NCBI GenBank assembly: GCA_041751215.1
Contig: JBGSXW010000002.1
Coordinates: forward strand, 350,591-414,590
Direction: 5' to 3'
Source of the DNA: Candidatus Saccharimonadales bacterium
GTDB taxonomy: Bacteria; Patescibacteriota; Saccharimonadia; Saccharimonadales; JBGSXW01
DNA: 64,000 nt
The notes under the pieces are model-generated. The model saw nothing but the letters and a program-made list of their open reading frames with translations. It was not told where the DNA came from and made no database searches. Positions 689 to 32,282 of the stretch are shown here, piece after piece; position 1 is the stretch's first letter; every line of letters begins with the position of its first letter. Position numbers and translations under genes: made by a program.

Positions 689-750
689 TAGATAATCTTA
701 GCAAAACCATGCTATAACGCACGCTGCTTGAATAAAGTATCAGCATAATC

Positions 751-756
751 GATTAT
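751..756 (+). promoter_or_regulatory. -10-like hexamer GATTAT exactly 6 nt before ATG 763 (leaderless geometry)
   Basis: GATTAT-GTAAGT-ATG with no SD. Five other genes in the window show the same spacing. Confidence 0.3.
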
Positions 757-762
757 GTAAGT

Positions 763-1746
763 ATGAATAACGAGCAGCAAAAGCTTGAGATTATGATAAA
801 ACTACCTCGGGGATTGAGTCTACCGGGTGGTCTGGTGGGGGCTGTCGCAAAAACTAAACTTTGCGACAAAGACACCTCTATATACACGCCCTCCTTTCGT
901 AAGATAAGGCGTAGGGATGAATTTAAGCCGATAGTCCCCGTTAAAACTGCTGCGAATTGGGAGCAGCACTTTAATAGTCCGCCACACGATACGCGAGCAC
1001 CCTGGGGGCGTGTGACTAGCCATCAAGAAGGCGAGGGCGGGCGTGGAATTCATTCTTTTTATGTAACTCGATTAATTGCTATTACCGACGAATCCGTCAC
1101 GCATAATACTGCGCAAAAAATTTATCACTCACTGGATGACTGGGCACAATTACTATGCGACTGGTATGAGGTCTACTTTCAAACAACCAGAGGAAATTCC
1201 TTAGAAGTAAAGCAGCACTCCAAGCATCATGAGGGGGTACAAGTTGATAGCAATGGAAAAATCGACAGCGAACTGAAGTGTAAGCATCCAATCGCAATTA
1301 CACTTGAGGTGGGCGACAAGCCTAATATACGACCGCAAGACTGGAGACGCATACTGGAACTTACTGGCATGGAGTCTGCGCCTCCTGAACCACATATTTT
1401 GTTACGAGATTCTCGAATTGAATATGGCAGAAAAAATTATCGGAGATGTGTGCTCGATGCAGCAACTGCAGCTGAAATGGCTTTGATTAAGTTGCAAGAT
1501 TCCACCCTTTTAAATACAGACTTGAAAATTGCTAAGTCAGTTAGGAAAAAGTACCGAGGAATTTACGAGCTTGTGGAATACCTCAAGACTACAGAAGTAG
1601 AATTTCCAAAAGACCAAATAAACAATGACGTCGCAAAGCCTAGGAACAAAGCCATACATGAGGGGGTTATGCCTAGCAAGGAACAAGCGGTGGCATGTTT
1701 AGAAAAAGCGACGGAGCTAGTAAACCGAGCTTTTCCTATTAATTAG
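763..1746 (+). CDS. HEPN-domain protein (RX4H motif), candidate RNase / abortive-infection-type effector
   Basis: The C-terminal ~110 aa are predicted helical, with AKPRNKAIHEG (R294-x4-H299, nt 1642-1659) in the position of the HEPN catalytic motif. I did not recognise the N-terminal 200 aa. Confidence 0.55.
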   Translation: MNNEQQKLEIMIKLPRGLSLPGGLVGAVAKTKLCDKDTSIYTPSFRKIRRRDEFKPIVPVKTAANWEQHFNSPPHDTRAPWGRVTSHQEGEGGRGIHSFYVTRLIAITDESVTHNTAQKIYHSLDDWAQLLCDWYEVYFQTTRGNSLEVKQHSKHHEGVQVDSNGKIDSELKCKHPIAITLEVGDKPNIRPQDWRRILELTGMESAPPEPHILLRDSRIEYGRKNYRRCVLDAATAAEMALIKLQDSTLLNTDLKIAKSVRKKYRGIYELVEYLKTTEVEFPKDQINNDVAKPRNKAIHEGVMPSKEQAVACLEKATELVNRAFPIN

Positions 1747-1775
1747 GGGTTCTCCCGCGCACAAACTTTGACGAC

Positions 1776-1805
1776 CGAACCTGGTGCTTTGCACCTTCAG
1801 GTTCG
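1776..1805 (-). other. tRNA-trailer hairpin module (T-arm mimic) downstream of tRNA-Arg
   Basis: In tRNA sense: CGAACCT-GAA-GGTGC-AAA-GCACC-AGGTTCG. The 3' strand CAGGTTCG equals the 5' half of the tRNA-Arg T-arm. The architecture matches the modules at 32114-32143 and 4145-4171. Confidence 0.55.
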
Positions 1806-1835
1806 ATGCTTGTCAGAACTACCACGAAAACAAAA

Positions 1836-1850
1836 CCACCCCTTGGGTGG
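1836..1850. terminator. bidirectional stem-loop terminator
   Basis: CCACCC-CTT-GGGTGG is followed by cattatttt on the plus strand and by TTTTGTTTTC on the minus strand. It sits between the HEPN gene end and the 3' end of tRNA-Arg. Confidence 0.5.
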
Positions 1851-1861
1851 CATTATTTTCG

Positions 1862-2863: not shown

Positions 2864-3724
2864 GTGGTTTTAGGTTATAGTATGCAAATTATGTCTGTTG
2901 ACGTTTTTGACCCCATTCCCTGCTTGGACGAAGCTCGTGAACTAAAGGTTGGCTTCAGAGATCACCCGATTGATCCTGATCAGCCGCTTTTTGATGAACC
3001 GCTGGTTGCATTGGCCGATTACGGTGTTGAAGGTGTTAACTACTACAGTCAACCCAACAATGCCACCATCGATCCGGTTGAAGGCGTAACTCCCAACGTA
3101 TTTGTGCGTCGCACCGTAGCCGAGAAGTTAGCTGCCGCCGATGAGTTTCTTTTAGCCCACGACGGATTAGCGGCAATGTTTGATGGCCGTATTAAACTCT
3201 ACGTTCGCGACGGCTTTCGGTCTCCGGTTTTGCAGGAACACTTAAACAATACTGTGATCCCAAATCTGATCCGGACTCAGAATCCGCAGTGGTCCGAGCA
3301 GCAAGTAGCCCAGCGTGCTTCACAAGTTATGACTTCCGGTCTATGGAGTGAGTCCTCTATACCTCCGCACTTCACAGGTGGCGCCGCCGACGTAATACTG
3401 GTCAGAGCCGATGATGGATCGATTATTAACACCGGTTTTAAAATCGTTACTCTCGGCAGCGAAGCAATTCACACCGACCACCTAGAAGCCATTGATGTTG
3501 AAGAACATGAACTAGTGCTGGCTCGCTATGCTCGGCGCGCTTTGTATAATGTTTTAACTTCCAATGAAGTCGGCAATGTGGCGATGACTAACAATCCAAC
3601 TGAAACTTGGCATTTTTCTATTTACGATCAAATGTGGGCCCGACTCAGTAACCAGCCCGCAGCACTCTATGGAGTCCCGCCCGAAATACCAGAGGAATTA
3701 AATCTGGTGGAAATTAATAATTAG
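2864..3724 (+). CDS. D-alanyl-D-alanine dipeptidase family (peptidase M15, VanX/DdpX-like)
   Basis: PPHFTGGAADVILV and ETWHFS match the zinc-binding H..G.A.D and (E)WWHF motifs. The start is uncertain (GTG 2864, ATG 2881 or ATG 2890). Confidence 0.65.
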   Translation: MVLGYSMQIMSVDVFDPIPCLDEARELKVGFRDHPIDPDQPLFDEPLVALADYGVEGVNYYSQPNNATIDPVEGVTPNVFVRRTVAEKLAAADEFLLAHDGLAAMFDGRIKLYVRDGFRSPVLQEHLNNTVIPNLIRTQNPQWSEQQVAQRASQVMTSGLWSESSIPPHFTGGAADVILVRADDGSIINTGFKIVTLGSEAIHTDHLEAIDVEEHELVLARYARRALYNVLTSNEVGNVAMTNNPTETWHFSIYDQMWARLSNQPAALYGVPPEIPEELNLVEINN

Positions 3725-3727
3725 CTC

Positions 3728-3746
3728 TTGGTCGGGGTGAGAGGAC
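3728..3746 (-). repeat. exact 19-nt copy of the tRNA-Pro(CGG) 3' end (att-like direct repeat)
   Basis: TTGGTCGGGGTGAGAGGAC at 3728-3746 is identical to 3933-3951. It starts 4 nt after the stop of the upstream CDS. Confidence 0.85.
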
Positions 3747-3901
3747 AGCGCTCCGGCTTCGCGCGGGGCTAACCTCCGAATTATTTTGCTCGCTCGTAAA
3801 GTGCGCTTAACGCACCTCGCTCGGCCAAGCAAGGAAAACATAAAGCCAAGACTTTGGCTTTATGCCTATCGGTCGGAGGTTCAAGACCAACAATCAGCCA
3901 A
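3747..3901 (-). repeat. tRNA-trailer module E1 (GC-rich, hairpin-rich, built partly from tRNA-Pro T-arm pieces)
   Basis: AACCTCCGA (3771-3779) is a direct T-stem copy. GGTCGGAGGTTCAAGACC (3871-3888) is a 17/18 inverted copy of the tRNA T-arm. An 11-bp hairpin CATAAAGCCAA/TTGGCTTTATG is also present. There is no credible ORF. Confidence 0.6.
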
Positions 3902-3933
3902 CCAAAAAGGGCCACAAAGCGGCCCCCTTTGGT
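3902..3933 (-). terminator. intrinsic terminator after tRNA-Pro(CGG)
   Basis: Minus sense: GGGGCC-GCTTTGT-GGCCC followed by TTTTTGG. Confidence 0.6.
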
Positions 3934-4008
3934 TGGTCGGGGTGAGAGGACTTGAACCTCCGACCTCCGCGTCCCGAACGCGGCGCGCTACCACTGCGCC
4001 ACACCCCG
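3934..4008 (-). tRNA. tRNA-Pro (anticodon CGG)
   Basis: CGGGGTG/CACCCCG acceptor, CCGCG-TTCGGGA-CGCGG anticodon arm, GGAGG-TTCAAGT-CCTCT T-arm, encoded ACCA. Confidence 0.95.
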
Positions 4009-4053: not shown

Positions 4054-4190
4054 ATCGCGCGGCTAAGAAGTGAGTGAAAGGGGCCGCCTTCGGCGCGTTT
4101 CCTCATGTGCTCGAAGTAAACTTCTGCGCGCATTCGTCACGAACGAACCTTCTGCTACGCAGTACAGGTTCTCGGGTCTATGCATCCGCA
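4054..4190 (-). repeat. tRNA-trailer module E2 (homolog of the module after tRNA-Lys)
   Basis: The reverse complement of 4110-4149 matches 32138-32177 at 33/40 positions without gaps (hand count). The hairpin GAACCT...AGGTTC (4145-4171) has a 3' strand, in tRNA sense, of GAAGGTTCG, which equals the tRNA-Pro(TGG) T-arm. Confidence 0.65.
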
Positions 4191-4227
4191 CCAAGCAAAA
4201 AGCCCTGCATTAGCAGGACTCTTTGCT
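4191..4227 (-). terminator. intrinsic terminator after tRNA-Pro(TGG)
   Basis: Minus sense: AGTCCTGC-TAAT-GCAGGGCT followed by TTTTTGCTTGG. Confidence 0.6.
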
Positions 4228-4304
4228 TGGTCGGGGTGAAAGGACTCGAACCTTCGACCCCCGCGTCCCAAACGCGGTGCGCTAGCCAACTGCGCTACAC
4301 CCCG
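4228..4304 (-). tRNA. tRNA-Pro (anticodon TGG)
   Basis: CGGGGTG/CACCCCG acceptor, CCGCG-TTTGGGA-CGCGG anticodon arm, GAAGG-TTCGAGT-CCTTT T-arm, encoded ACCA. Confidence 0.95.
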
Positions 4305-4860: not shown

Positions 4861-6375
4861 CTACTTAGCGAACTCGATAGCGCGAGTTTCGCGAATTACA
4901 TTTACTTTTATTGTGCCCGGGTACTGCATTGTCGATTCAATCTTGTTGGCAATATCTCGGGCCAGCTTGATGGCGCTAAGGTCATCGATATCTTTGGGAC
5001 GAACAACCACACGGATTTCGCGACCGGCAGAAATAGCGTAGGCCTTGTCGATCCCTTGGAATCCAGTAGCAATATTTTCGAGTTCTCGCATGCGCTCAGC
5101 AAAGTTCTCGGCACTAACGTTACGAGCACCGGGGCGTGCCGCGCTAATTGCGTCTACGATACGCACCACCAAGGCCTCGGGAGTTGTAGCCTCGACATCA
5201 TCGTGGTGAGCCTCAATCGCGTGCGCAACTTCTTCTGGCAGACCGTACTTACGAGCCAGCTCGCCGCCAATGTGGTGGTGCTTGCCCTCAATCTTGTGCG
5301 TTAACGCCTTACCAAAGTCGTGTAGCAAAGCTGCAGTTTTGGCAACACGCACATCAGCACCGATTTCATCGGCAATCATGCCAGCTAGGTGTGACATTTC
5401 GGTTGAGTGCTTGAGCACATTCTGGCCGTAAGAAGTTCGGTATTTTAGCTCACCTAGGTAGCGCATGACTTCTTTTGGAATGCCCACTACGCCGACTTCG
5501 CGGCAAGCATCTTCGGCTGCAAGATCAATGTCTTTATCCATTTGTTTGTGCGCTTTTTGAACAACTTCTTCGATACGAGCTGGATGCACTCGGCCATCTT
5601 TGAGTAACATTTCGAGGGCAATTCTGGCAGTCTGGCGCCGAATCGGATCAAAACTAGAAAGAATAATCATGCCTGGCGTGTCGTCAACTAATATGTCGAC
5701 GCCGGTCTCTCGCTGCAAGGCCTGAATGTTTCGGCCTTCTTTACCGATAATGCGGCCCTTCATTTCTTCGTCGTCGAGTTTAACGGCGGTCACTGTTCGC
5801 TCGGCCGTAACCTCGGAAGACATACGCTCCATGGCGGTTAGCAGCACCAGTTGAGCCTGTTCTTCGGCGTCTTCTTTGGCGGTATTTTGCAACTTAGCGA
5901 CCAGGCCTTTTAGGTCCTCTTTAATGTCGCGCTCGGTCATTTTCATCAACTTATCAGCGGCCTCTTGCTTGGTAAGCTTGGCAACTTTTTCGAGCTTGTC
6001 TTGTTGTTTTGAGCGAATGGCTCTAATCTCATCTTTGAGTTTTTCCATCTCGCCTTCGCCAGTACGTAGCCGCTCGGCTCGCTTGTCGAGTTCGTCAAGT
6101 TTCTTGTCGAGATTTTCCTCGCGCGAGAGAATTCGCTCTTCGGTTTTCTTTAGCTCGTTGCGAGCTTGACGCTCAGCCTTGCGGGCTTCATCAGCAATCT
6201 GATCGGCCTCAGCTTTGGCTTTTCGGATCTCGTCTTGAGCCTTTTTTTCAGCATCACGAAGAGTCTTTTCGGCTTTTTTATCGACTTCGCCAAGTCGTTT
6301 TTTAGTTACAGCTGTCGACGCTCCGAATCCGGCAACAATTGCCACGGCGCCGACCACAAGAGTAATTGGGTCCAT
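4861..6375 (-). CDS. rny: ribonuclease Y
   Basis: N-terminal TM helix, long K/E-rich coiled coil, KH domain (GKEGRNIQALQRETGVDILVDD) and HD domain (LLHDFGKA...HH). The start was moved to ATG 6375 (MDPITLVV), which is preceded by AGAAAGGAAAA. Confidence 0.92.
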   Translation of the reverse strand: MDPITLVVGAVAIVAGFGASTAVTKKRLGEVDKKAEKTLRDAEKKAQDEIRKAKAEADQIADEARKAERQARNELKKTEERILSREENLDKKLDELDKRAERLRTGEGEMEKLKDEIRAIRSKQQDKLEKVAKLTKQEAADKLMKMTERDIKEDLKGLVAKLQNTAKEDAEEQAQLVLLTAMERMSSEVTAERTVTAVKLDDEEMKGRIIGKEGRNIQALQRETGVDILVDDTPGMIILSSFDPIRRQTARIALEMLLKDGRVHPARIEEVVQKAHKQMDKDIDLAAEDACREVGVVGIPKEVMRYLGELKYRTSYGQNVLKHSTEMSHLAGMIADEIGADVRVAKTAALLHDFGKALTHKIEGKHHHIGGELARKYGLPEEVAHAIEAHHDDVEATTPEALVVRIVDAISAARPGARNVSAENFAERMRELENIATGFQGIDKAYAISAGREIRVVVRPKDIDDLSAIKLARDIANKIESTMQYPGTIKVNVIRETRAIEFAK

Positions 6376-6560
6376 AGTTTTCCTTTCTGCACCTCTGTCC
6401 TGCGGGCCAAACTGTGCGTGTTTGGCTAGTTGTATCACCGCCCAACAAAGATGTATATCACTATCTAAATTTTTCTAACTGGACTTCCTCACACAATAAA
6501 GAAATCTGTACTTATAATACGCGTCTTAGTTTTGCTTGGTCAATGCCAATAGCTTTTAGG

Positions 6561-9864: not shown

Positions 9865-10438
9865 TTTGATGATAGTTGAAGCCGCGGCGAGCTAAAAAGG
9901 CCATTAGTTTCTGATCATCCTCGTAGCGCGCAATCTTGCGCTTCTTTGCGACAAGCTCTTTAAGAGCGGCTTCTTCTGACTGTTCTGAGTCGCCCAGCAC
10001 TTGATCGATTACGTCTTTGCCTATTCGCTTTTTCATCAGTTCTGCTTGCAGTTGCCTATCGCTGCGCTGAGACAGTCTCCGTCGCTCATCCACCCAGACT
10101 TTGGCAAACTGTAAATCATCAAGATACTTAGTCTCAAAAAGACGTTCGATCACACGATCAATTAGCTCTGGTTCATAATCTTTGCGTTTTAGATAATCTC
10201 GTATCTCCCACTCGCTACGGCGGCGTCGAGCCAACAGATCATAGGAGCGCATAATTGCCTTGTCTTCTGCGGCCCGGTCTTGAAGTTCATCTAGCCCTGC
10301 CTCGGTGACTTCCTGCTCAAGCTTTAGCCCAGATTTTATCAACTCGGGTTCCGAGAGCGAAAAGCTGTACTTGCCATCAACAAAAATCGAATATCGCCCT
10401 TGGCGCTTAACTTGGGCTTTGATGTTAGTTATCTTCAT
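9839..10438 (-). CDS. recX: recombination regulator RecX
   Basis: Repeated three-helix modules, and its position directly downstream of recA. Confidence 0.8.
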   Translation of the reverse strand: MKITNIKAQVKRQGRYSIFVDGKYSFSLSEPELIKSGLKLEQEVTEAGLDELQDRAAEDKAIMRSYDLLARRRRSEWEIRDYLKRKDYEPELIDRVIERLFETKYLDDLQFAKVWVDERRRLSQRSDRQLQAELMKKRIGKDVIDQVLGDSEQSEEAALKELVAKKRKIARYEDDQKLMAFLARRGFNYHQIKSALEEE

Positions 10439-10507
10439 TTAGTCTCTTGGGCTGTGTGGGTTTTGCCTCTTCAGCATATCCTTTAAGAGTTGGCACACTG
10501 CTCGCTT

Positions 10508-11542
10508 TTAGTCGTGGCTGGCGGCTTCAATAACCAGAGCCCGAATCTTCTCGAGTAGCTTGGGGTCGTCTGTCAAAGTCTGCTTTGCGGCCTCTCGACC
10601 CTGACCGAGCTTAGCGCCTTCGTACTCAAACCAGGCACCAGCTTTGCCAACAATTTCATAGTTGACCGCTAGATCGAGTACGTCACCACTGGTTGAAATA
10701 CCATTGTTGTACATGATGTCGAACTCAGCCACTCTAAACGGCGGCGCAATCTTGTTTTTTACGACTTTTACGCGCACATGGTTACCAACAATTTTTTCAC
10801 CATTTTTTAATTGACCAATTCGGCGGATATCCAGTCGAACTGATGAGTAGAATTTTAAGGCATTACCGCCGGTAGTTGTTTCGGGGTTGCCAAACATCAC
10901 GCCGATCTTCATACGAATCTGGTTGATAAAGATGACCGTCGTACCAGTTTTACTAATAGTTCCGGTTAGTTTGCGGAGCGCCTGGCTCATTAAGCGAGCT
11001 TGCAGACCCATATGTGAATCGCCCATCTCGCCTTCAATCTCGGCCCGTGGAACTAACGCTGCCACCGAGTCGACAATAACGATGTCAACGGCGTTGGACC
11101 GAACTAGCGTCTCTACAATCTCGAGAGCTTGCTCACCGGCATCGGGTTGAGATATGAGCAGGTTATCAATGTCTACGCCGATTTTTTTGGCGTACTGTGG
11201 GTCAAGGGCGTGCTCGGCATCAACAAAGGCTGCAGTGCCCCCAGCCTTTTGGACTTCGGCCAGTATATGAAGCGTTAGAGTGGTTTTACCGCTTGATTCT
11301 GGGCCATAAACCTCAATGACTCGCCCTTTAGGGATTCCGCCACCAAGGGCTAGGTCTAGAGAAAGACTGCCAGTTGGTATGGTCTCGACTTCGACCTTCT
11401 GAGCTTCTCCCAGCTTCATGATTGAACCTTTGCCGAATTGCTTCTCGATTTGCTCGAGCGCAAGATCAAGTGCCTTGCTTTTACCGCTGTCGGCCCCTGT
11501 GTTCGTCTTGGCCACCCCTTTGGCTGCTTTCTTTGTAGCCAT
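10508..11542 (-). CDS. recA: recombinase RecA
   Basis: [10 protein letters not shown] Walker A and canonical RecA sequence throughout. TATAAT plus a GGGGG SD lie upstream. Confidence 0.98.
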
Positions 11543-31981: not shown

Positions 31982-32058
31982 GGGCCCATAGCTCAGCCGG
32001 TTAGAGCACCTGCCTTTTAAGCAGGGTGTCCTGGGTTCGAGTCCCAGTGGGCCCTCCA
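31982..32058 (+). tRNA. tRNA-Lys (anticodon TTT)
   Basis: GGGCCCA/TGGGCCC acceptor, CCTGC-CTTTTAA-GCAGG anticodon arm, CTGGG-TTCGAGT-CCCAG T-arm, encoded CCA. Confidence 0.95.
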
Positions 32059-32095
32059 ATCTAAGAACCTGCCGTATGGCGGGTTTTTAGATTGG
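32056..32095 (+). terminator. intrinsic terminator after tRNA-Lys
   Basis: CCAATCTAA...AACCTGCC-GTAT-GGCGGGTT-TTT...TTAGATTGG, a nested stem ending in a T-run. Confidence 0.6.
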
Positions 32096-32096
32096 A

Positions 32097-32282
32097 GAGA
32101 TTTATTGCGTACTCGAACCCATGACGGCGTAGCCGTGGGTTCGTTCGTGAGGAGCTCTCGCAGAAGCTTGCTTCGAGAAAGTGACGAAACGGCGAACGTA
32201 AGTGAGCGCCCCCGGTGGGCCAATTTCAATCGCGAGCTGAGAGGGCGAGCGTAGATGCAAATTGCCCCCAGTGGGTTTTCAC
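32097..32282 (+). repeat. tRNA-trailer module D (homolog of E2) with degenerate tRNA-Lys 3'-end copies
   Basis: Hairpin CGAACCC-ATG-ACGGC-GTA-GCCGT-GGGTTCG (32114-32143). 32138-32177 matches E2 at 33/40. CCCCCGGTGGGCC (32209-32221) and CCCCCAGTGGG (32265-32275) echo the tRNA segment CCCAGTGGGCC. Confidence 0.6.

Follow-up and report, generated by a model that had tools for sequence, protein, structure and literature searches.

The 64,000-nucleotide stretch of Candidatus Saccharimonadales contig JBGSXW010000002.1 analysed here (the window) carries near its start, on the forward strand, a gene for a 327-residue protein, the C-terminal third of which is very probably a HEPN domain that has all residues of the active-site signature, judging from the conservation of its homologues and a predicted structure. 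This call of a HEPN enzymatic domain is strong. As for function, a role in defence or as a toxin appears to be the most likely one, on circumstantial grounds and with moderate confidence, and on balance we favour, cautiously, the more specific reading that the protein is a stand-alone, two-domain, sensor-coupled HEPN RNase of an unnamed family that would act in abortive infection. The gene and the residues central to the argument are the following, in window coordinates.

763..1746, + strand: HEPN-family gene, a single complete open reading frame (ORF) in the ORF listing with an ATG start, 327 codons and a stop codon, encoding a two-domain protein of an unnamed family
763..1371, + strand: N-terminal alpha/beta domain, residues 1 to about 203, as delimited in the AlphaFold model
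1381..1743, + strand: probable C-terminal HEPN domain, residues about 207-327, from the model and profile matches
1474..1476, + strand: codon of E238, the acidic residue in the predicted HEPN helix 2, from alignment conservation and the model
1642..1659, + strand: R294-N295-K-A-I-H299, the R-x4-H motif with a polar residue after the arginine, from the alignment and the model
1642-1644, 1645-1647 and 1657-1659, + strand: codons of R294 (agg), N295 and H299 (cat), respectively, as read in the sequence

In the definition of HEPN domains by Anantharaman et al., helix 3 closes with an Rx4-6H motif, past which the chain enters the loop towards helix 4 (PMC3710099); a polar residue (N, D or H) follows the arginine, helix 2 contains an acidic residue, and a variable insert separates helices 2 and 3 (PMC3710099). 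In an alignment of 104 diverse family members, on which conservation was counted and in which the mean column identity is 22%, no position other than E238, R294 and H299 is invariant, and N295, R227, T235, A236, W127 and P43 each keep their residue in 90% or more of the members; E238 is also invariant across 52 C-terminal halves. Motif and domain-pairing counts were taken over 153 family representatives, and R-x4-H lies within the last 70 residues in 150 of these, with an asparagine after the arginine in 140; the three representatives without it are either truncated at the motif or bear C-terminal extensions. The motif is thus no chance match, and since E, R, N and H are kept across a family of such low mean identity, the active site appears to be under selection. 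The AlphaFold2 model built from the 104-sequence alignment (predicted local distance difference test, pLDDT, 92.5; predicted template modelling score, pTM, 0.87) replaced a useless one built from four sequences (pLDDT 43.5), and it places HEPN helix 1 at residues 209-222, helix 2 at 226-248, two short insert helices within 254-275, helix 3 at 286-300 and helix 4 at 306-323. In this prediction R294 and H299 are located at the C-terminal end of helix 286-300, followed by the loop 301-305 and the helix 306-323, and E238 lies inside the helix 226-248, where the next basic residue follows it as E-x4-K and not as the typical E-x3-[KR].

Profile comparisons of the homologues point to the same superfamily. 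In a member-by-member Pfam scan of the 104 proteins, HEPN-clan models are the sole recurrent matches, with PF05168 found in 11 and further matches to DUF4145, HEPN_Swt1, Hypoth_Ymh, HEPN_LA2681 and RiboL-PSP, and among the C-terminal halves PF05168 HEPN is matched by 14 of the 52 (best E = 4.2e-6) and DUF4145 by nine (best E = 3.3e-4). Positions 8-113 of the 117 in the PF05168 profile align to the last ~112 residues of the actinobacterial homologues. The PADLOC Csx1/Csm6 CARF+HEPN model is matched at 3e-7 by four of the 104 members, which is tentatively attributed to the HEPN part of the model. A sequence-only reading of the window had named a HEPN domain with an R294/H299 dyad and had proposed Pfam and PADLOC searches and an AlphaFold model as checks; its residue numbers are correct, the fold is predicted, the R-x4-H residues are kept in homologues, and the modelled helix order and motif position are those that a HEPN domain requires. 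In the library checks, the Pfam search left the window protein itself unmatched and gave the weak, recurrent HEPN-clan matches in its homologues, and PADLOC matched the four members above and not the window protein.

Searched directly against Pfam, PADLOC, NCBIfam and PDB sequences, the window protein has no match even at E <= 10, and in PHROGs it has a single weak one (E = 0.11) to a PHROG of unknown function. A word-indexed search found four close relatives only, at 50-100% identity and one of them identical on an NCBI contig, and six proteins only when the family alignment served as the query, which reflects the limit of the word index. HMMER, run exhaustively over 1.84 billion cluster representatives, retrieved 559 proteins at E <= 1e-3, a family size counted in clusters at 50% identity, and 140 at E <= 1e-10. 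Because the HMMER matches run end to end and the length is nearly constant (nearly all members have 310-350 residues, most 320-345), the gene belongs to a sizeable family of fixed length. Members are still labelled 'hypothetical protein' in RefSeq, and the family is covered by no model in the copies of Pfam-A (2025), NCBIfam 20.0 and PADLOC-DB 2.0.0 (2023) that were searched. Profiles of the whole family and of the N-terminal domain found nothing in the PDB, that of the C-terminal domain gave non-significant matches only, including Ec2ApeA at E = 0.53, and no family member was found in the phage database and viral contigs.

The N-terminal domain, residues 1 to about 203, is modelled with a pLDDT mostly above 90 as a beta-rich alpha/beta fold, with strands at 9-21, 28-57 and 82-108 (the long ones being 9-21 and 96-108), several hairpins, a 26-residue helix at 114-139 and four short strands, the last strand region being 146-182. 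Its conserved residues are E9, P43, W66, G82, W127, W134, E136 and W194. No Pfam family recurs among 31 N-terminal halves, no PDB sequence matches the domain, and Foldseek comparisons with PDB and BFVD gave spurious matches only (gyrase and others, TM ~0.1); the sequence-only reading had likewise left these 200 residues unrecognised, and indeed no relative of them turned up in any library tried. Domain hidden Markov models (HMMs) find the N-terminal and HEPN domains together in 140 of the 153 representatives, the rest being fragments, and all longer-than-usual family proteins retain both. We infer that the N-terminal domain serves as a sensor or regulatory module, or in oligomerisation.

Compared with the rest of the HEPN superfamily (Pfam clan CL0291; nearest PF05168 and PF13643 DUF4145), the family is alike in the Rx4H motif with N at the end of helix 3, in the acidic helix-2 residue and in the modelled four-helix core, where an insert separates helix 2 from helix 3. 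It differs in having its own fixed alpha/beta N-terminal domain, which is listed for no HEPN family, and none of the MNT, restriction-modification or helicase fusions seen in PF05168 and DUF4145 proteins is found in it. In its mode of action the protein would be most like ApeA or DARNA, and it is a member of neither. ApeA is a single-protein HEPN anti-phage system, a tRNA anticodon nuclease activated by 5'-phosphorylated deoxydinucleotides (bioRxiv 10.64898/2026.01.26.701840), and the likeness consists in one gene, a C-terminal HEPN effector, a non-catalytic N-terminal part that senses a signal, putatively so here, and the local motif RN..(I/V)H.G..PS. ApeA proteins, however, have 470-590 residues, are nearly all-helical and consist of ApeA_NTD1, Mid and a split HEPN_Apea, in contrast to the 327 residues, beta-rich N-terminal domain and compact HEPN domain found here. 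PF18862, PF18739 and the PADLOC ApeA model have no match in the window protein and are missing from the families reported for the 104 members, and in an hhalign comparison with a bona fide ApeA (from locus L026) the RN-x3-H motifs are in register, with E = 0.15 for the HEPN and 0.57 for the N-terminal domain. The ApeA-like assignment floated by the sequence-only reading therefore fails as family membership.

DARNA, a single-protein HEPN tRNase activated by single-stranded DNA bound to the phage single-stranded DNA-binding protein (bioRxiv 10.64898/2026.02.22.705581), resembles the present family in combining a HEPN domain and a sensor domain in one polypeptide, if the sensor role holds here, and it offers a model for a nucleic-acid cue and for HEPN dimer sites. 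Its domain order is the reverse, with an N-terminal HEPN domain and a helical C-terminal domain of 300 residues, its sensor fold is another one and it forms dodecamers; no sequence relation to DARNA was detected. The type VII toxin-antitoxin pair HepT/MntA is alike in the compact HEPN domain of canonical size, the Rx4H motif and the PF05168-type profile similarity, but needs an adjacent MNT gene, and no such gene adjoins the family gene here or in 45 related loci; the immediate neighbours of the window gene are a divergent NUDIX gene and tRNAs, the N-terminal domain adds 200 residues, and membership was rejected. Csm6 and Csx1 share the logic of an N-terminal ligand sensor and a C-terminal HEPN domain, again provided that the N-terminal domain is a sensor, but their sensor is a CARF domain, whereas no CARF Pfam match occurs among the 31 N-terminal halves and the predicted N-terminal domain is devoid of Rossmann-like strand/helix alternation. 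They also belong to a type III CRISPR or cOA context, and the families reported for the scanned genes of the window and for the 140 actinobacterial neighbours considered below include no cas or cyclase family; membership was rejected here too. Abi_2 (AbiD/F), AbiJ, AbiU2 and AbiV have no Pfam or PADLOC match to the window protein and are not among the top families reported for the members.

The phyletic distribution of the family is patchy. From related Saccharibacteria, RNase Y clusters with 73% identity or more number at least 120, as against 3-4 HEPN-protein clusters at 50% identity or more, counted in a collection of 5.8 billion proteins. In a more distant Saccharibacteria genome the locus around RNase Y is devoid of the HEPN gene and has another gene order downstream, and the contig with the closest RNase Y stops short of the region. 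A metagenome scan with the neighbouring 216-residue protein of the window found no relative. The accessory status of the window gene rests on the phyletic pattern and not on the local context. Among GTDB species representatives all 14 family matches fall in Actinomycetota, the carriers including Solirubrobacterales metagenome-assembled genomes, Allokutzneria, Streptosporangium, Plantactinospora and Micromonospora. In all 14 of these actinobacterial loci (20-kb loci L007-L020, match regions near 10001-10990) the GC content of the gene is lower than that of the locus (0.53-0.66 versus 0.63-0.71), which fits a recent horizontal acquisition, and at third codon positions it falls to 0.49 in Allokutzneria. 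Four Actinomycetota plasmids of Kocuria, Mycolicibacterium and Rhodococcus carry members, likewise labelled 'hypothetical protein'. A midpoint-rooted neighbour-joining tree of 33 members, built from a sample biased by the search pattern, with identities of ~30-35% and no support values, groups the window clade with other low-GC members as the sister of a large Solirubrobacterales clade, the deeper branches coming from high-GC genomes. An origin in Actinomycetota with later spread to low-GC lineages including Saccharibacteria, of which the cultured representatives are epibionts of Actinomycetota, is compatible with this tree, as a speculation. Some copies look degraded: in L005 (1492-2471) the gene is split into ORFs of 83 and 243 residues, in L015 (9725-10926) into two overlapping ORFs, and in the Mycolicibacterium plasmids (L056 7001-7723) the coding sequence is annotated with 170 residues though the match covers 228 codons.

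The neighbourhoods of the relatives suggest an association with defence. On a metagenomic contig (L026 1051-6837) a family member, 34% identical, stands in an apparent defence island in the order ApeA (ApeA_NTD1 + HEPN_Apea), unknown 294-residue gene, family member, unknown 220-residue gene and AbiEii. Another relative has a serine recombinase/Replic_Relax module on one side and a type II restriction-modification system with Vsr on the other, a third lies within an element of integrase, HTH_17 (excisionase-type helix-turn-helix, HTH) and AAA_25 genes, one adjoins a UvrD-like helicase and another TerB, and on the Rhodococcus plasmid a Pycsar system is found 5.5 kb from the family member. The Kocuria plasmid member is near integrases and the Mycolicibacterium one near IS200/IS605 TnpA/TnpB and a recombinase, and in all three closest relatives, the loci of which have a GC content of ~41%, a tyrosine integrase lies 1-3 kb from the family gene. 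At locus L021 the neighbours are mostly housekeeping genes. As a raw count, defence or mobile-element genes are near the relatives in about nine of 12 annotated contexts; among the 140 actinobacterial neighbours the scattered matches are Fic/SoFic, integrase, HTH, methyltransferase and PDC. Clustering of the neighbours over the 45 loci gave no conserved partner gene, which agrees with the stand-alone nature proposed in the sequence-only reading. One Solirubrobacterales subclade has a conserved unknown ORF of 138-191 residues, 3-10 nt past the stop codon of the family gene, which is convergent and therefore outside the operon of the latter.

L009 10907-11434, - strand: convergent subclade ORF
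L011 10957-11370, - strand: convergent subclade ORF
L013 10957-11370, - strand: convergent subclade ORF
L036 8961-9374, - strand: convergent subclade ORF
L043 8957-9529, - strand: convergent subclade ORF

A conserved downstream block is seen in L001 (1468-4280), L004 (1781-3538) and L005 (2483-6006); it consists of an oppositely oriented unknown gene of 296-301 residues, which L004 lacks, and of genes for a PH_gly_zipper-like protein, DUF488 and, overlapping, the tyrosine integrase. The block genes of L001 and L005, integrases included, have no tblastn match in the 64-kb window.

In the window itself the gene is bounded by the following features.

287-688, - strand: NUDIX gene (Pfam E = 1.3e-21)
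689..762: divergent intergenic region of 74 nt shared with the NUDIX gene, as read in the sequence
1836..1860, both strands: bidirectional intrinsic-terminator-like hairpin CCACCC-CTT-GGGTGG (hairpin 1836-1850) with T-runs on both strands, from the terminator scan
1862-1938, - strand: tRNA-Arg(tct)
2074-2148, - strand: tRNA-Gly(tcc)

With the divergent NUDIX gene on one side and the terminator hairpin between the stop codon and tRNA-Arg on the other, the HEPN gene looks monocistronic, and in this, as in the flanking NUDIX gene and tRNA pair, the sequence-only reading is borne out. The hairpin at 1836-1850 is a plausible shared end of the HEPN transcript and the convergent tRNA-Arg transcript; the 3' untranslated region of the HEPN gene (1744-1862) has a folding z of -3.9. 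The leaderless-type start that had also been proposed is plausible: the region 689..762 has no Shine-Dalgarno sequence upstream of the ATG and a candidate -10 box, CATAAT, lies at 744-749, 13 nt before the start codon, but the consensus promoter scan found no site on the + strand upstream of the gene. In the window at large, a Shine-Dalgarno sequence is absent in 46 of the 67 ORFs and many have TATAAT 6-9 nt before the start codon; examples of gene starts with a TATAAT-like box and no Shine-Dalgarno sequence are 2814, 23521, 54497, 54522, 55512 and 60525. This pattern suggests widespread leaderless transcription in this Saccharibacteria genome, and a leaderless or very short-leader start of the HEPN gene would plausibly be in line with that habit. 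The other window neighbours are housekeeping genes, namely a membrane protein, an M15-like peptidase, a histidine phosphatase, a TsaB-like gene, RNase Y and tRNA-Pro.

If the protein acts in abortive infection, as we favour, two HEPN domains would dimerise to form a composite, metal-independent RNase site, by analogy with the HEPN superfamily (PMC3710099) and with the ApeA and DARNA preprints. The N-terminal domain would keep this site off until an infection cue, be it a ligand, a nucleic acid or a phage protein, is sensed, and activation may proceed via higher-order assembly. The active enzyme would then cut RNA of the cell, with tRNA anticodon loops or another abundant RNA as the most likely substrate, HEPN RNase activity being of the kind that leaves 2',3'-cyclic phosphate ends, and the cleavage would stop the growth of the infected cell. 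As an accessory and horizontally mobile gene, it stands alone among housekeeping and tRNA genes in this Saccharibacteria genome. The earlier proposal of a defence or toxin candidate finds circumstantial support in the neighbourhoods of the relatives, in plasmid carriage and in the patchy distribution, and is not helped by the housekeeping neighbours at the window locus. Several points weigh against the abortive-infection reading. The window protein stays below threshold in every library, so that the HEPN assignment is transitive via homologues, and among these most individual Pfam matches are under the 22-bit gathering cut-off, the PF05168 scores being 12.7-16.1 bits in the loci checked. None of the members is matched along its entire length by a known defence HMM. 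In the scan of the window genes no defence or mobile-element neighbour was found at the locus, and the 140 neighbours in the 14 actinobacterial genomes are mostly housekeeping genes, with sporadic defence or mobile-element matches.

The protein could instead be the toxin of a toxin-antitoxin or addiction module that stabilises mobile elements and does not sense phages, the antitoxin being either a small ORF or RNA that escaped recognition or the N-terminal domain itself as a fused, cis-acting antitoxin. Type VII HEPN toxins (HepT/MntA) are common, fused MNT-HEPN forms exist (PMC13000451), family members do reside on plasmids and integrative elements, and the copies that look degraded (L005, L015 and the Mycolicibacterium coding sequence) do so as toxic genes would; yet neither MNT nor any other gene is a constant neighbour in the 45 loci, the window gene stands without a co-oriented partner, and its N-terminal domain matches no nucleotidyltransferase or antitoxin family, and we regard an addiction toxin as unlikely. 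The location of the gene next to tRNA-Arg, Gly and Pro, RNase Y and the TsaB-like, NUDIX and histidine phosphatase genes, together with the mostly housekeeping neighbours at L021, would befit a housekeeping nuclease for RNA processing or quality control, acting for example on tRNA or rRNA precursors, and some HEPN proteins, among them Swt1 and the KEN domains of RNase L and Ire1, do process cellular RNA (PMC3710099). Such a role is very unlikely for a gene with an extremely patchy distribution in Saccharibacteria and variable neighbourhoods, with plasmid and mobile-element carriage and atypical GC content in actinobacterial hosts, and missing from a related Saccharibacteria RNase Y locus.

Two further explanations appear to have only a slight chance of being correct. 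Saccharibacteria can kill their Actinomycetota hosts (PMC13578794) and HEPN domains serve as C-terminal toxin tips in conflict systems (PMC3710099), which would suit a secreted or contact-delivered toxin of the polymorphic type, directed against the bacterial host or competitors. Its N-terminus, however, has no evident signal peptide or trafficking domain, there is no adjacent immunity gene, and the same architecture occurs in free-living Actinomycetota and their plasmids, which argues against a weapon specific to the epibiont. The HEPN domain might, at similarly long odds, be a catalytically inactive binding or regulatory module, as many HEPN domains, for example those fused to nucleotidyltransferases, have lost catalysis (PMC3710099); inactive families, though, have lost Rx4-6H, whereas in this one E, R, N and H show little or no variation.

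The abortive-infection reading can be extended, doubtful as the extension is, to a new single-gene system which senses infection by a novel type of sensor, the N-terminal domain, and which passed from plasmids and integrative elements of Actinomycetota to the Saccharibacteria epibionts, that is, a defence gene crossing the boundary between host and epibiont. Saccharibacteria live on Actinomycetota hosts (PMC13578794), and a host prophage binds and infects TM7x, so that epibionts can meet the same phages as their hosts (PMC13578794). If true, the N-terminal domain would be a new module for trigger recognition, the least understood part of HEPN defence, for which ApeA and DARNA were solved only recently. 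A candidate that is neither CRISPR nor restriction-modification would be added to the defences of Saccharibacteria, whose phage interactions have just become experimentally accessible, and the question whether epibionts acquire immunity genes from the Actinomycetota that they live on could be put to a concrete example. If the protein is merely another HEPN toxin, the result is one of routine annotation.

The tRNA genes of the window have trailers of a peculiar kind. On the + strand, 1798-1841 is a 77% inverted copy of the T-arm, acceptor, CCA and trailer of tRNA-Arg, and long imperfect palindromes centred on the terminator loop follow four of the six window tRNAs, namely Arg, both Pro and Lys (1798-1888, 4172-4249, 3871-3965 and 32028-32125), so that the T-arm, acceptor 3' strand and CCA recur just past the terminator in degenerate, inverted form. 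A weak palindrome follows tRNA-Gly (2011-2103) and none follows tRNA-Met. With the palindrome past the tRNA-Arg terminator, the 3' untranslated region of the HEPN mRNA would end in a look-alike of the tRNA-Arg 3' end. The sequence-only reading had called such trailers recombination-scar-like; they turn out to be inverted partial copies only, centred on terminators at four tRNAs and weakly at a fifth, and as they recur at other tRNAs of the window they represent the tRNA-terminator habit of the genome and no gene-specific scar. No direct repeats of the tRNA-Arg 3' end bracket the HEPN gene, and in view of this and of the window's lack of tblastn matches to the tyrosine integrases of L001 and L005 the idea of an island targeted to a tRNA was dropped. 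Neither ARAGORN nor the Rfam tRNA model at E <= 10 recognised the possible pseudo-tRNA at 1748-1827 (+). An isolated third direct copy of the 20-nt tRNA-Pro 3' end is found at 3727-3746 (the others being 3932-3951 and 4226-4245), directly after the stop codon of the ORF 2864-3724 and 185 nt from tRNA-Pro(cgg); it resembles an att-type remnant, and the stretches between the copies contain no element.

Inside the HEPN gene (1358-1371) lies one arm of a perfect 14-nt inverted repeat (AACTTACTGGCATG / CATGCCAGTAAGTT), the other arm of which is in the spacer between tRNA-Arg and tRNA-Gly (2043-2056); by our estimate about 0.07 such pairs per 6 kb are expected by chance. RNase Y (4861-6438, - strand) is 74-79% identical to the proteins named RNase Y by NCBI in Candidatus Saccharibacteria and Saccharimonadales, and the order RecA-RecX-LTD-TsaE-TsaB-RNase Y is common to the window and Saccharibacteria contigs; both place the window in a Saccharibacteria (CPR) genome, in agreement with the CPR-type genome of the sequence-only reading. 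The mechanical ORF of RNase Y has 525 residues from a GTG start, and since all close homologues have 504, the true start is probably ~21 codons downstream.

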